Part shown: positions 24,714 through 29,252 of the stretch, piece after piece
How positions within the stretch are numbered: the stretch's first letter is position 1
Layout: each line of letters begins with the position of its first letter
Assembly: GCA_963732095.1 (NCBI GenBank)
Contig: CAVSZA010000022.1
Span: forward strand, 117,167-181,166
Source of the DNA: an uncultured Alphaproteobacteria bacterium
GTDB lineage: Bacteria > Pseudomonadota > Alphaproteobacteria > ATCC43930 > CGMCC-115725
Direction of reading: 5' to 3'
Length of the DNA: 64,000 bases
Made by a program: the position numbers and the translations under genes
The notes under the pieces: generated by a model
The model's database searches: none
The model's input: only the letters and a program-made list of their open reading frames with translations
Told to the model about the DNA's origin: nothing

Positions 24714-26414
24714 TCAGAAGAGCCCCGTAATGCGGCCCTCCGCATCAACCGCGATATTATTTGCGGCCGGCACCTGCGGCAGGCCCGGCAAAGTCATGAT
24801 ATCGCCGCAGATTACGACCACGAACTCCGCGCCGGCCGACAGTCGCAATTCCCGCACTGTCAGAGTATGGTCGCTGGGTGCGCCTTTGGCGTTGGGATCG
24901 GTCGTAAAGCTGAACTGGGTTTTGGCGATGCACACGGGAAAATGGCCGAAGCCCTGGTCTTCCAACTGTTTGAATTGGTCGCGGACCGTCTGGCCGGCCT
25001 CGATGTCGCTGGCGCCGTAGATGCGCTGGGCAATCGTGCGGACCTTTTCCAAAAGCGGCATTTCGTTCGGATACAGAAAACGGAGTTTTGCCGTGCCGCT
25101 CTCGGCGAGAGCAACGACGGCACGGGCCAGCTCGACCGCTCCCTCTCCACCCTGGGCCCAATGGTCGGCGACGATCGCCTCGACACCCTCGCGCGCGCAG
25201 AGCTGCTTCAGCAGGTCGAGTTCCGCCGTGGTGTCGGCGCTGAAGCGATTGACCGAGACGACCGCCGGCACGCCAAACTGACGCAAGTTCCGCAAGTGAC
25301 GGGCGAGGTTGGCAAATCCGCCTTCCAGCGCCCCGAGGTTTTCCTGCCGCAAAGCGTCGCGAGCGACGCCCCCGTGCATTTTCAAGGCCCGCACGGTCGC
25401 CACGACGACGGCGGCGTCCGGCCTCAACCCGGCCTTGCGGCATTTGATGTCGAAGAATTTTTCGGCTCCAAGATCCGCGCCGAACCCCGCCTCGGTGACG
25501 ACGTAATCCGCGAGCTTCAACGCCGCGGTCGTCGCAATCACCGAATTGCAGCCATGCGCGATGTTGGCGAATGGGCCGCCATGGATGAAAACCGGGTTGT
25601 TCTCGATCGTCTGCACCAAGTTGGGCGCGAGCGCATCCTTCAGTAAGGCTGCCATCGACCCGGCCGCTTTGATATCGGCGGCCTGTACCGCCTTGCGCTC
25701 CCGCGTCTGGCCGACGACGATGTTGCCGAGCCGCCGCTGCAGGTCCTGAAGATCGGTCGCCATGCAAAACGTCGCCATCACTTGCGAGGCGGCGGTGATG
25801 TCGAAACCGTCCTCGCGCGGATAGCCGTTGGCGACGCCCCCCAGGGAGGAGACGACCGAGCGCAGCGCACGGTCGTTCATGTCTATCGCGCGACGCCAGC
25901 TGACCCGGCGCGGGTCAATACGGGGTTCGAGCCCATAATAGATGTGGTTGTCAACCATTGCCGCGAGCAGGTTGTTGGCCGCTCCGATCGCGTGCAGGTC
26001 GCCAGTGAAGTGCAGGTTGATATCCTCCATCGGCACGACCTGCGCGTAGCCGCCGCCCGCCGCGCCGCCCTTGACGCCGAAGCAGGGACCCATGCTTGCC
26101 TCGCGGAGGCAGAGCACGGCTTTTTTGCCGATCAGGTTAAGCGCGTCGCCGAGTCCGACAGTCGTTGTAGTCTTACCTTCGCCGGCCGGCGTCGGAGTGA
26201 TCGCCGTGATGAGGATCAGCTTGGCAGGCCGATCGGGAAGCGAGCGAATGTAGTCGAGTTAAATCTTCGCCTTGTATTTGCCATAAGGCGAGACCGCATC
26301 ATCCGGGATCCCCAGCTTTTCCGCGGCGATGGCGCCGATCGGCCGCATCGTCGCGGCCTGAGCTATCTCGATGTTGGATTTCGGGTTTTTGTGTTGCTCG
26401 GCTCCGCGCGCCAC
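24714..26414 (-). pseudogene. fhs: formate--tetrahydrofolate ligase, otherwise full length, with one in-frame TAA
   Basis: GAAGGAGA, 6 nt, then GTG 26414. [54 protein letters not shown](26259-26261)[87 protein letters not shown]... runs in the same frame to 24714. Family members have Ser at this position (KAKISLD); TCA to TAA is one substitution. Confidence 0.85.
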
Positions 26415-26578
26415 GGCGTTTCTCCTTCTGCGATGACGCCGCGTCTTAACCCCTCGGGGCCCGACGGGCAACCTTCCTCCACGTATTCGTTTGGCACGGG
26501 GAGGTGACGTAACGGGCTTCTGACCGGTTACCCCCGAGGATATATTAACTTCGGCTCACGAACACTCAGAGGTGCCTG

Positions 26579-27028
26579 ATGATTGACACAAAGACTGGCC
26601 GAGCCGCCGGTTTCGGCGCCGCGGCAATGATTGCCGCGCTCGGCCTCGCTGCCGCCGTTTCAGCCCCCACCCCAGCCGAGGCTCGAGTGTTCATCGGCTT
26701 CGGCTTTGGTTTTCCGATAGGGTTTCCGTTCTATTATCCTCCCTACCCCTATTATCCGCCGCCGGCTTATTACCCGCCGCCACCCTACGACCTCGGCCCG
26801 GCGTCCTATCCGGCGCCCGGGACACCATCTCAGCCGTCAGCCGGCTATGCGCCCTCCGGACTTGCCGGGAGCCCCTCGATCACCTAAACGCCGCGGCGCG
26901 GCTGGACGAACGCGCAGGGACAATATTGCCGGGAGTACCGGACCACCGGGCCGGGGGGCAATCGTGCGACCGAGCGTTACGGAACCGCCTGCCGGGACGC
27001 GAGCGGCCAATGGCGGATTGGTAACTGA
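26579..27028 (+). pseudogene. secreted Pro/Tyr-rich protein with conserved Cys-motif C-terminus, interrupted by an in-frame TAA
   Basis: ORF 26579..26887 has a signal peptide (AAMIAALGLAAAVSAPTPAEA), then FGFGFPIGFPFYYPPYPYYPPPAYYPPPPYDLGP.... Past TAA 26885-26887 the same frame reads TPRRGWTNAQGQYCREYRTTGPGGNRATERYGTACRDASGQWRIGN-TGA (27026-27028). The C-R-E-Y...Y-G-T-A-C-R..G.W pattern is a C-terminal motif I recall from small rhizobial surface proteins. This is recollection, not a search. Confidence 0.55.
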
Positions 27029-27048
27029 GAATTGGGAGTTATCGGCAT

Positions 27049-27234
27049 TTAACGTGCTGCTTCGACCGGCACGCGGAGTTCGACGGACAACGGCAGACCG
27101 CCATGGGCTTCGCCGAGCCTGCCGAGCCGCTCGGCCAGTTGGGCCAATGTCGCGCCGCGCGCCAGATCGAAAGATAGTCTCGAATTTTGGAATACCGCCG
27201 TCACTCGGTTCGGCTTCTGCGCGCTGTTGCTCAT
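27049..27234 (-). CDS. small hypothetical protein (61 aa)
   Basis: GAGGGGGA lies 7 nt upstream of ATG 27234. MSNSAQKPNRVTAVFQNSRLSFDLARGATLAQLAERLGRLGEAHGGLPLSVELRVPVEAAR. Divergent from the Gly/His-repeat protein gene. Confidence 0.4.
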   Translation of the reverse strand: MSNSAQKPNRVTAVFQNSRLSFDLARGATLAQLAERLGRLGEAHGGLPLSVELRVPVEAAR

Positions 27235-27448
27235 TATGGAATCCCCCTCAATTGGGTATAACTGTCAGATAAACTGCCGAACGCGCAATTTAATCCGTAA
27301 AAATTTGTATCAATTCGCATCCGCCTTTGATCCCGGAAGAAAGCGCAGACGCCGTAACTTTGCTTAACAAAAATTTACTCGAATGCCATGCCGCCAACCA
27401 CACATACGATCCGAGCGAGCAATGTTTACGATTGGGATGGAGTAGTCG

Positions 27449-27931
27449 ATGGATCAGGTAAGCGGCAGCGCAGCCGGGCCCAAGACCGGCAAGGCTCTCG
27501 GGTGTATTGCAGCGGCGCTGCTATTTGCCGCCGCGATTGGCCTGCCGCAGGCGGCCGATGCCGCACATGGTGGCGGTGGCGGCGGTGGCTTCCATGGCGG
27601 TGGCGGCGGATTTCACGGCGGCGGCGGTGGCTTCCATGGCGGTGGCTTCCATGGCGGCGGGTTTCACGGCGGCGGCTTCCATGGCGGATTTCACGGCGGC
27701 GGGTTCCACCGCGGCTTTGGCGTCGGGTTTGGATTGGGGGGTCTCTACGCACCCTACGGTTACGGTTGGGATTATTCTTATCCCTACGATGACACTTACG
27801 GCTATCCGGACTATGGCTACTACCAGCAGCCCTACGCTACGCAGTATTGGTATTACTGCTCCAACCCCGCTGGCTATTACCCGTATGTGAGCCAGTGCAA
27901 TACCGGCTGGCAGACGGTCCCGGCAAGCTGA
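27449..27931 (+). CDS. secreted Gly/His/Phe-repeat protein with Tyr-rich two-Cys C-terminal motif
   Basis: GGATGGAG before ATG 27449. Signal peptide ...ALGCIAAALLFAAAIGLPQAADA. Mature protein AHGGGGGGGFHGGGGGFHGGGGGFHGGGFHGGGFHGGGFHGGFHGGGFHRGFGVGFGLGG, then YAPYGYGWDYSYPYDDTYGYPDYGYYQQPYATQYWYYCSNPAGYYPYVSQCNTGWQTVPAS. Confidence 0.75.
   Translation: MDQVSGSAAGPKTGKALGCIAAALLFAAAIGLPQAADAAHGGGGGGGFHGGGGGFHGGGGGFHGGGFHGGGFHGGGFHGGFHGGGFHRGFGVGFGLGGLYAPYGYGWDYSYPYDDTYGYPDYGYYQQPYATQYWYYCSNPAGYYPYVSQCNTGWQTVPAS
27566..27709 (+). repeat. degenerate in-frame tandem repeat (12-27 bp units) encoding H-G(n)-F
   Basis: Successive units cat/cac-(ggc/ggt/ggg)n-ttc/ttt encode nine His separated by 2-7 Gly plus Phe. 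The units are contiguous with no spacers and lie wholly inside the CDS. Confidence 0.85.
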
Positions 27932-27959
27932 GTTATCAGCCGCGCGGGTGACGCTCGCG

Positions 27960-29252
27960 CTACTCGGCGGCGTTTTTGCCGCCGTAGCGGCGCATGCGCA
28001 GGTCGGCTTGCTCCTTGTGGCCCCAGAAGCGTTCGATGGCGCAGAGGCGGCTGCAATATTCGCCGACCATCGCGCTGGCCTCGGGCGTCTTGATCTCCTG
28101 ATAGGTGCAGGTCTTCAGGAACTTGCCGACCCAGAGGCCGCCGGTGTAGCGCGCGGCGCCTCTGGTCGGCAGCGTGTGGTTCGTGCCGATCACCTTGTCG
28201 CCATAGGACACGTTGGTCTCGGGGCCGAGAAACAGGGCGCCGTAGTTCTCCAGCCTTTCCAGATAGCGGCGCGGCTGAGATGTCAGCACCTCCACATGCT
28301 CGGCGGCGATACGGTCGGCCTCCGCGACCATCTCGTCCTCGTCGGCGCAGAGAATAACCTCGCCGTAGTCGCGCCAGGCCACTCCCGCGATGTCGGCGGT
28401 GCGCAATTGGGTGAGCTGCCTGTCGATTTCGGCGATCGCGGCATGGGCCAGGTTTTCCGAGGTGGTCAGGAGGGTCGCCGGCGAGGTCGGGCCGTGCTCG
28501 GCCTGACCCAACAGGTCGGTCGCGCACATCTCAGCGTCGGCGGTCTCGTCGGCGATGACCAGGATCTCGGTCGGCCCGGCGAAGAGGTCGATGCCAACCC
28601 GGCCGTAGAGCTGGCGCTTGGCCTCGGCGACATAAGCATTGCCGGGCCCCACCAGCATGTCGACCGGCCTGAAGCTCGCGGTGCCGAGCGCCATCGCCGC
28701 GACTGCCTGGACGCCGCCCAATACCTGGATGTCGTCGGCGCCGCCGAGATGCATCGCGGCGATCGTCTCGGGATGCGGGCCGCCCTGGTTCGGCGGCGTG
28801 CAGGCGGTGATGTGTCCGACGCCGGCGACGCGCGCCGTCACGATGCTCATATGCGCCGAGGCGACCATCGGATAGCGGCCGCCCGGCACATAGCACCCGA
28901 CGCTGCCGACCGGGATGTGCCGGTGCCCGAGCACGACCCCCGGCAATGTCTCAACCTCGACATCGCGCATCGAGGCGCGCTGGATCTCGGCGAAATGGCG
29001 GACCTGCGCCTGCGCGAATTTGATGTCCTCGATCGTCTGCGGCGCGACCTTGGCGACCAGTGCCGCAACCTCGTCCTCGGCGAGGCGGAAGCGCGGCGGC
29101 GACCATTTATCGAACCGCTCGGACATTTCGCGCACCGCGGCGTCGCCCCGTTTGGCAACATCGGCAATGATGGTTTCGACCGTATTGCGGATCTTGGCGT
29201 CGGCCTCTTCCTGCTGGCCGGCCAACGCCGCCCTCTTGATGTGCCGGGACAT
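27960..29252 (-). CDS. histidinol dehydrogenase family protein (HisD-like paralogue)
   Basis: 430 aa. [94 protein letters not shown] are HisD-family motifs. It stands alone with no other his genes nearby, so the substrate is uncertain. Confidence 0.8.

Follow-up and report, generated by a model that had tools for sequence, protein, structure and literature searches.

A His-Gly-Phe repeat array joined to a conserved WYYC module in a predicted envelope protein of an uncultured alphaproteobacterium

What is the function of a small bacterial protein in which histidine, a run of glycines and phenylalanine follow one another in tandem units? This question is raised by an open reading frame (ORF) at positions 27449-27931 of a 64,000-nt (64-kb) stretch of DNA from an uncultured Alphaproteobacteria bacterium (contig CAVSZA010000022.1, positions 117,167 to 181,166), which is called the window here. 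Its 160-aa product, the HGnF protein, has four parts: a signal peptide, nine H-G(n)-F units, a linker rich in Gly, Tyr, Pro and Asp, and a WYYC tail. In alignments of its relatives the tail, not the array of units, is the most conserved and defining part of the protein, and profile searches indicate that this WYYC module recurs as the fixed part of small envelope proteins in several phyla, which together make up a large undescribed superfamily. For the array, we tentatively favour a reading by analogy with the prion protein (PrP), namely that a disordered, tethered chain binds divalent transition metals (Cu/Zn/Ni). The gene and its parts are as follows.

27449..27931, plus strand: coding sequence of the HGnF/WYYC-module protein, complete, 160 aa plus stop (ORF list).
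27439..27442, plus strand: Shine-Dalgarno (SD) sequence GGAG, 6 nt 5' of the ATG (read from the sequence).
27449..27562, plus strand: predicted Sec signal peptide, residues 1-38 (hydropathy, by-eye reading of the n-, h- and c-regions, AlphaFold2 (AF2), junction in the family).
27566..27718, plus strand: array of nine H-G(n)-F units, residues 40-90 (unit coordinates and codons, Tandem Repeats Finder, shuffle test, AF2).
27719..27844, plus strand: Gly/Tyr/Pro/Asp-rich linker, residues 91-132 (62-sequence alignment; AF2 predicted local distance difference test (pLDDT) <50).
27845..27928, plus strand: WYYC module, residues 133-160, YWYYCSNPAGYYPYVSQCNTGWQTVPAS (alignment, profile search, AF2).

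The tail reads YWYYC-x12-C-x3-W-x2-VP at residues 133-158. In an alignment of 62 sequences all invariant columns lie in it (W134, Y135, Y136, C137, P140, G142, Y143, Y144, P145, C150, W154 and V157), and 109 of the 120 top homologues match a strict regular expression of the tail, which ends 3 residues before the C-terminus in almost all of them. Searched against 1.84 billion representative proteins, a profile built from the last ~41 residues retrieved 2,218 clusters at E<=1e-3, of which 152 reach E<=1e-10. The best 146 new profile matches carry one motif (79 proteins), two (46) or three (21), with Pro-rich linkers between the copies, and therefore the tail behaves as an independent module. Its consensus is x-W-Y-Y-C-x2-P-x-G-Y-Y-P-Y-V-x2-C-x3-W-x2-V-P, in which two Cys and one Pro are invariant. 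Residues 134-158 of the window protein match this motif of ~27 residues, and the signal peptide and a low-complexity His-rich head are also present. When residues 125-160 were modelled by AF2 from a diverse 61-sequence module alignment, the mean pLDDT was 82 (core ~90) and three short strands were predicted at residues 133-138, 141-143 and 154-158. Cys137 and Cys150 presumably form a disulfide in the periplasm. The modules of ten multi-module relatives gave no Pfam or NCBIfam match, the unrelated DUF6515 elsewhere in one of these proteins being the only hit. A comparison of the profile with PDB sequences returned only chance matches to antibody CDR-H3 loops ('YYC...'), and Foldseek found nothing in the PDB at E<=0.001 for the module model, a search of low power for a 36-residue query. 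In published full text, no bacterial account was found of the array or module motifs, or of a glycine zipper combined with a histidine-rich protein.

The protein is predicted to be exported. Its signal peptide has an n-region with K12 and K15, an h-region at about residues 16-32 with a mean Kyte-Doolittle value >2.3, and a c-region PQAADA; by-eye reading plus hydropathy places the putative cleavage between A38 and A39 of A36-D37-A38-A39-H40. AF2 of the full protein puts a helix at residues 14-30. An AxA followed by [A/G/GP]-H-G-G-G is conserved at this junction across the HGnF family, and the invariant Cys pair is confined to the mature part. From these features we infer export via Sec and a signal peptidase I cut after Ala38. 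The mature protein (122 aa) consists of 35% Gly, 15% Tyr, 8% Phe and 7% His; Lys and Glu are missing, Arg occurs once and Asp four times, and aromatic residues (Y+F+W) make up 25%.

Comparison with relatives also bears on the gene itself. We found at least 1,563 homologues at E<=1e-3 in a search of 5.8 billion proteins. The homologues listed are 112-247 aa long and unnamed or labelled 'hypothetical', and all 23 whose sequences were read have the same architecture. Among species-representative genomes there are 11 relatives, ten in metagenome-assembled genomes (MAGs) of uncultured soil Alphaproteobacteria, many labelled Stellaceae, and the eleventh in a Sterolibacterium MAG; no plasmid-borne relative was matched. 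The window protein has no match in Pfam-A 2025 or NCBIfam r20, even at E<=1. In the intergenic alignment, the block ACGATTGG-ATGGAGT-GTCGATG around the SD and the start is kept in the close relatives L001 (73% identity) and L012 (65%). All indels between HGnF relatives are in frame, and in the last 29 codons synonymous differences exceed non-synonymous ones against six relatives (e.g., 9 vs 5 and 7 vs 3). By these comparisons the ORF is a real gene, and purifying selection acts on its module. The same in-frame indels and synonymous excess indicate that the other frames open across the repeat, 27426..27752 on the minus strand and 27388..27792 on the plus strand (ORF list), are artefacts of GC-rich repetition. 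No Rfam family reached its gathering score anywhere in the window, so no structured RNA was recorded there.

The initial annotation, made from the sequence alone, had described this ORF, quoted its repeat sequence and counted nine units with Gly runs of 7, 5, 5, 3, 3, 3, 2 and 3. The quoted sequence matches the translation in the ORF list exactly, and the unit coordinates give the same count: H40-F48 (G7), H49-F55 and H56-F62 (G5 each), H63-F67, H68-F72 and H73-F77 (G3 each), H78-F81 (G2), H82-F86 (G3) and H87-F90 (HRGF). Tandem Repeats Finder reports overlapping periods of 9-30 nt at 27568-27718 with 61-92% matches. When the mature sequence was shuffled 200,000 times, the counts never reached 8 FH dipeptides or 9 H-Gn-F units (maximum 5); the pattern thus far exceeds what chance would give. 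The codons of the array are mixed (His CAT 5/CAC 4; Phe TTC 5/TTT 4; Gly GGC 23/GGT 6/GGA 2/GGG 2). The units are therefore not fresh copies, and the amino-acid pattern is what is maintained. Among the columns conserved in at least 90% of the 62 aligned sequences are H40 and the F-H pairs of units 1 to 4, and F-H-G-G is kept in at least 90% of the sequences in these four units. In the low-complexity half of the top 120 homologues, Phe precedes His in ~70% of cases, Gly follows it in ~70% and stands at +2 in ~77%, and His-His spacings peak at 5, 7 and 8. The comparison of homologues and repeat numbers that the initial annotation had proposed thus found unit number variable and F-H-G-G conserved. 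Proteins at least 65% identical to the window protein have 6 to 12 His units, and such in-frame change fits replication slippage, as had been proposed. The claimed shortening of the Gly runs from 5' to 3' is present, but it is not peculiar to this copy: the longest Gly run also comes first in the consensus of the 62-sequence alignment, and the shortening is therefore a family trait. AF2 gives the full protein a mean pLDDT of 47, with ~40 for residues 36-129, which are thus predicted to be disordered, and predicts nothing beta-rich in the array. The linker that follows varies in length and sequence among the homologues of the same alignment; a Tyr-rich segment after the array is found throughout the HGnF family.

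His-rich heads are not limited to the HGnF family. We sampled the superfamily through at least 120 loci found with a back-translated DNA pattern for WYYCxxPxGYYPYV, a sample biased to exact motif matches in which genes were called with our own heuristics. In 105 module proteins from these loci the median His content of the head region is 4.5% (flanking ORFs, 2.7%), and 53% of the module proteins, compared with 25% of flanking ORFs, contain a stretch of 25 residues with at least 4 His. At least three H-[G/S]2-7-[F/W/Y] units occur in 14 of 109 module proteins, about half of which belong to the HGnF family. The others include proteins of Methylobacter (L039), Methylomicrobium (L054, with HGGGF and HGGGW), Caulobacteraceae (L028), uncultured Betaproteobacteria (L087, L133 and L139, with GWHGGGSG repeats) and Geomesophilobacter sediminis (L104, with FHGGGGGG). 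A Rudaea protein (L026) has WHGGG-type repeats in its sequence, yet falls below the three-unit count. Loci L026, L039, L054, L104, L133 and L139 place [F/W]HGGG arrays in unrelated lineages. Together with the His-rich heads across the superfamily, this argues that the array is selected and not a product of drift. The heads of other module proteins are Pro-rich, R/D/W-rich or G/Y-rich.

The sampled loci span Alpha-, Beta- and Gammaproteobacteria, Geobacteraceae, Desulfuromonadaceae, NC10/Methylomirabilota, Rokubacteria and one acidobacterial MAG. Cultured carriers include Nevskia soli, Geomonas propionica, G. paludis, Geomesophilobacter sediminis, Methylomonas methanica, Methylomicrobium lacus, Janthinobacterium spp., Aromatoleum toluclasticum, A. 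evansii, Paludibacterium purpuratum and Nitrosomonas sp. Nm166 and Nm84, and RefSeq names the module homologues of cultured strains 'hypothetical protein'. Their common build is a signal peptide, a low-complexity head, a Tyr/Pro-rich stretch and the module. The only recurrent Pfam families among 138 flanking ORFs are the glycine zippers PF13441 and PF13436, with 8 members each. A tblastn search with three of these neighbours showed that a glycine-zipper lipoprotein is encoded in 76 of the 120 sampled loci, and in ~15 loci inspected directly its gene adjoins that of the module protein and has the same orientation, with a downstream position in every one of these loci except one. The lipoprotein has ~170-220 aa, with a lipobox, PSGPSV..LPG, a glycine zipper, QRRYD.AY.QCMY, a further Cys motif DD..C.QYA and a PPPPPP tail (examples are L045:1473-1988, L061:6336-6878 and L082:1040-1615), and its only annotations are 'glycine zipper family protein', the RefSeq name, or 'hypothetical protein'. 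Because the module is the sole constant part, is duplicable in tandem and is usually co-encoded with an outer-membrane lipoprotein, we infer that its role is most likely docking or anchoring, with the co-encoded lipoprotein as the presumed partner in most lineages. The HGnF protein itself is no glycine-zipper protein: it has no Pfam match to PF13441, PF13436 or PF05433, and its sole zipper-like pattern is the poly-Gly run.

Other types of head were also observed in the superfamily. A second conserved His/Trp-rich segment, WHGDI.RFHEHD...WRGG.W.HG.H.GR.GWWW..G.WY.YP.P.YPYPDPY.PP, stands before the module in many proteins, e.g., those of L046 (Paludibacterium), L025, L062, L071, L098, P0167 and P0188; it has no Pfam or NCBIfam match. 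Nitrosomonas MAGs (L023, L101, L105 and L116) encode single-module proteins of 395-429 aa whose long heads consist of acidic (G-G-[D/F/Y]-G-G-D-F/Y) repeats, then an HHGHHHGHHH stretch and a G/F/Y region before the module.

How could such a protein work? It has been shown that at high occupancy the HGGGW of PrP coordinates Cu2+ with its His and the amides of the two glycines that follow, that several His surround one Cu2+ at low occupancy, and that affinity rises about tenfold with at least 8 repeats (PMC2663819). By analogy, the mature envelope protein of ~122 residues would have two functional halves, array and module. The array of F-H-G-G(-G) units would be a multivalent binder or buffer of periplasmic Cu2+, Zn2+ or Ni2+ with low to moderate affinity. 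At low metal load several His imidazoles would share one metal, and at high load each unit would use its own His and the backbone amides of the following glycines, as in the PrP HGGGW; nine H-G-G units would permit both modes. The last 28 residues would fold into an aromatic-rich three-stranded unit stapled by Cys137-Cys150 and serve as the docking or anchoring part, for a partner that is not encoded nearby in the HGnF lineage. The new N-terminus may also matter. Most HGnF family members have His at predicted mature position 2 or 3 (AH.., GH.. or GPH..). An N-terminal X-His is a Cu(II) site; in a GPH start, Pro at position 2 lacks an amide hydrogen, so that the classical NH2-X-X-His (amino-terminal Cu- and Ni-binding, ATCUN) site for Cu(II) is not formed.

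Several observations weigh against this. No metal-homeostasis gene lies within ~15 kb on either side of the gene in the window, where the genes are LigD, an MR/MLE enzyme, an amidase, Lon, MTHFS, FTHFS, a hisD-like gene, a transposase, a flavodoxin-like gene, a hydrolase, a LysR and an OEP-FUSC-HlyD efflux set; the earlier statement that metal-resistance genes are not adjacent holds over this whole range. None was found in 10 neighbourhoods of closer homologues either, and the top 25 Pfam families in the 138 ORFs flanking module genes include nothing metal-related. A crude regular-expression scan of 107 upstream regions found no Fur, Zur, CueR, CopR or PhoP-like sites, enriched or otherwise. 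In chemical terms, Phe cannot stand in for Trp in the indole contact known from PrP, the variable Gly runs allow no fixed chelate geometry past H-G-G, and the array contains no Met, Cys or acidic residues, which periplasmic Cu(I)/Cu(II) proteins typically have. Taken together, the multi-module proteins are rich in Pro but not in His (median 2.2%); thus, His is common in the superfamily but not universal. As to docking, tblastn (E<1e-4) detected no glycine-zipper lipoprotein in the window or in the HGnF-subfamily loci L001-L019.

The main rival explanation is that the Gly/His/aromatic half forms a self-associating matrix (a coacervate, a gel or a layer resembling amyloid) in the periplasm or at the cell surface, with pH or metal as the switch. 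His deprotonation near neutral pH would condense the chain via aromatic and His-Tyr contacts, and the module would nucleate or anchor the matrix. The composition suits this: the mature protein is almost uncharged, rich in Gly and aromatic residues and predicted to be disordered, and the Tyr-rich segment follows the array in the whole family. Squid histidine-rich beak proteins (HBPs) provide a precedent, as their GHGLY pentarepeats undergo pH-induced coacervation in which Tyr and His form hydrogen bonds and pi-stacking contributes, and gels are favoured by GAGFA/GFA blocks (PMC10766971). However, curli and Fap loci have machinery for assembly or export and this locus has none nearby, AF2 makes no beta-rich prediction for the array, and self-association does not need strict H-G-G conservation beyond the spacing of aromatic residues. 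We consider it possible, although on balance doubtful. It is compatible with metal binding, and both may hold.

It is unlikely that the module is the only functional part, a binding or sorting unit to which the array is joined as a flexible, slippage-prone spacer with no specific ligand. The module is indeed nearly invariant while His number ranges from 6 to 12 among relatives that are at least 65% identical, other module proteins have quite different low-complexity heads, and the multi-module relatives are not enriched in His. A mere spacer, however, would not be expected to keep F-H-G-G at 90% or more in its first four units despite mixed codons. His enrichment before the module also extends over the single-module proteins of the superfamily, and [F/W]HGGG arrays recur in distant lineages.

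A secreted antimicrobial peptide or bacteriocin-like toxin against competitors would also be small and exported, as this protein is predicted to be, and Gly/His-rich antimicrobials are known: plant shepherins and insect holotricin are Gly/His-rich, and many microcins are Gly-rich. Nevertheless, the fetched loci have no adjacent immunity, processing or dedicated export gene, and the HGnF gene is chromosomal, single-copy and, in close relatives, syntenic with housekeeping genes (FTHFS, MTHFS and a hisD-like gene), with no plasmid matches, which makes this role very improbable. That there is no gene at all, only a chance ORF over a GC-rich simple repeat or a true gene on the opposite strand, has practically no chance of being right, because, although GC-rich triplet-like repeats open on both strands, more than 1,500 homologues keep the frame, the signal peptide and the non-repetitive module, SD and start are conserved, and the in-frame indels and synonymous excess in the module complete a refutation by comparative data.

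Metal binding by the tethered array thus stays our favoured, still tentative, reading. A bolder reading, which we hold to be improbable, is that the module is a new aromatic-cradle mini-domain that docks onto Pro-rich tails of envelope lipoproteins and so tethers an [F/W]HGGG buffer or condensate, responsive to Cu(II)/Zn(II) or pH, under the outer membrane. In most phyla its docking target would be the PPPPPP tail of the lipoprotein encoded alongside, and in the window possibly the PPxY-rich neighbour.

This neighbour and the rest of the surroundings remain to be described. L001 and L012 share synteny with the window, in the order MTHFS, FTHFS, PY-rich gene (L012 only), orf61 (minus strand) and HGnF gene, and the gene of a further relative, P0006 (62% identity), is likewise near FTHFS and MTHFS. 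Distant HGnF members stand in unrelated contexts (TetR, LysR, RND efflux, Rieske dioxygenases). The upstream neighbour (26579-27028, plus strand) had been presented as a second secreted low-complexity protein. It does have a signal peptide, a Pro/Tyr-rich region, a C-terminal YCREY...ACRD.SGQWR and a weak match to PF16998 (17-kDa antigen; E 8.5e-4), but an in-frame TAA at 26885-26887 interrupts it at codon 103. In L012 (148 aa) and L140 (163 aa) the orthologue is uninterrupted and has TAC (Tyr) at this position, and the gene is absent from L001; the window copy is either a pseudogene or the product of a sequence error. The FTHFS gene (24714-26399, minus strand) also has an in-frame TAA, at 26259-26261, where ATT TAA stands for the ATC TCG (Ile-Ser) of L001 and L012, and its remainder, read in one frame, shares 86% identity with the L012 protein. 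The two TAA codons, ~620 nt apart in adjacent conserved genes, could reflect real decay or an assembly or base-calling artefact.

Between these genes and the HGnF gene lies orf61 (27049-27234, minus strand). As had been noted, it is divergent, encodes 61 aa and has a strong SD, GAGGGGGA; it is 92% identical in amino acids in L001, with nearly invariant DNA. Its family comprises 118 clusters of 61-62 aa, only in Stellaceae-like or uncultured Alphaproteobacteria, and it has no Pfam match. Because the family also occurs without an adjacent HGnF gene (L140 and L142), orf61 is not a strict partner, and a dedicated role for it, as partner or as regulator, was rejected; its linkage is to the region of the FTHFS and PY-rich genes. 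The downstream neighbour is a convergent gene similar to that of histidinol dehydrogenase (hisD). Just past it there is an ORF for an IS4/IS5-type DDE transposase (PF01609; 29657-30481, plus strand), and in L142 and L143 an unrelated 249-aa ORF, transposase-like by eye, stands beside orf61 where the window has the HGnF gene. This suggests that the spot of the HGnF gene is prone to rearrangement.

Two AT-rich boxes are conserved upstream of the gene.

27295..27313, no strand assigned: first conserved AT-rich box, CCGTAAAAATTTGTATCAA, in the intergenic region shared by the divergent orf61 and the HGnF gene; L001 and L012 have the same sequence as the window.
27370..27381, no strand assigned: second conserved AT-rich intergenic box AAAATTTACTCG (intergenic alignment).

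A consensus scan of 26400-28100 found no sigma-70-like promoter and no terminator. A candidate EcfG promoter, GGAAG...CGTAAC at ~27335-27358, was rejected since it is not conserved and is deleted in L001, and the EcfG site GGAAC-N16-17-CGTT is absent from the 107 upstream regions of module genes. In these regions k-mer enrichment gave no clear de novo motif, and a regular-expression scan of upstream regions of module genes for sigma-54 sites showed no enrichment. In the HGnF subfamily with a GPHGGG start, a 313-aa LysR-type regulator is divergent across a 135-nt gap (L014:4924-5865 and L018:3924-4865). It may be a dedicated regulator in this lineage because the pairing occurs in two otherwise different neighbourhoods; as a regulator of the window gene it was rejected, the divergent pairing being limited to this one subfamily and absent here.

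What would these readings mean? If the array binds metal, it would be a convergent bacterial counterpart of the prion octarepeat, available in cultured bacteria such as relatives of Geomesophilobacter, Methylomicrobium and Janthinobacterium. If the module is an aromatic cradle, a widespread and unrecognised envelope system for metal or stress, with metal chemistry convergent with that of PrP, would come into view. Low-complexity proteins often resist clean answers. Independently of metal, the module is a small domain, presumably disulfide-stapled, that is absent from Pfam, NCBIfam and the PDB and occurs in at least 2,218 clusters and several phyla. The two-gene cassette of module protein and glycine-zipper lipoprotein offers an entry to unannotated envelope biology in soil, methane-oxidising, ammonia-oxidising and metal-reducing bacteria.

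Finally, the protein can be compared with known systems. Like the PrP octarepeat, the array combines His, 2-3 Gly and an aromatic residue in tandem in the disordered N-terminal region of an extracytoplasmic protein, with polymorphic repeat number, and W replaces F in some bacterial relatives (L026, L054, L133 and L139). It differs in being bacterial and, by prediction, periplasmic, in its period (5-9 vs 8 residues) and in having Phe for Trp and no Pro or Gln. With units of 4-9 residues that contain no P, W or Q, and with no homology, it was not counted as a PrP octarepeat; only the H-G-G-G-aromatic core is alike. The squid-beak HBPs are also secreted, disordered and nearly uncharged, with Gly/His/aromatic pentapeptide repeats, but they are not homologous, carry Tyr/Leu inside the unit, where the HGnF protein has a separate Tyr linker, and have no disulfide module. 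The WW domain shares with the module a length of ~30 residues, two Trp ~20 apart, a GYY strand, a Pro after the second Trp and three strands (AF2). However, WW domains have no disulfide, and a WW-like disulfide-stapled fold was rejected at a profile-profile (hhalign) probability of 0.8%, obtained with a WW alignment typed by hand, and because no WW was found in Pfam, PDB sequences or Foldseek.

Closer in build are small proteins of the bacterial envelope. E. coli ZraP, with Gly/His-rich termini, and Nitrosomonas europaea SmbP are small and Sec-exported, and their His-rich segments bind Zn/Cu and buffer metal stress in the envelope. These two proteins are helical and folded, and are encoded in metal-regulated operons, whereas the HGnF protein has neither a sequence match to them nor a metal-linked genomic context. 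Small secreted alphaproteobacterial proteins of the PF16998 (17-kDa surface antigen) type, to which the upstream neighbour belongs, have the same sequence of signal peptide, low-complexity region and Cys-loop end, and BA14K-type proteins share this build. In contrast, the C-terminal motif of the HGnF protein is C-x12-C with WYYC/GYYPYV, for which there is no Pfam or NCBIfam model. The homologues are unnamed; the initial annotation, too, was aware of no characterised function for this architecture. In summary, judged by sequence and predicted fold, the HGnF protein belongs to no described family, and its build resembles those of known secreted Cys-loop proteins and His-rich periplasmic metal binders.

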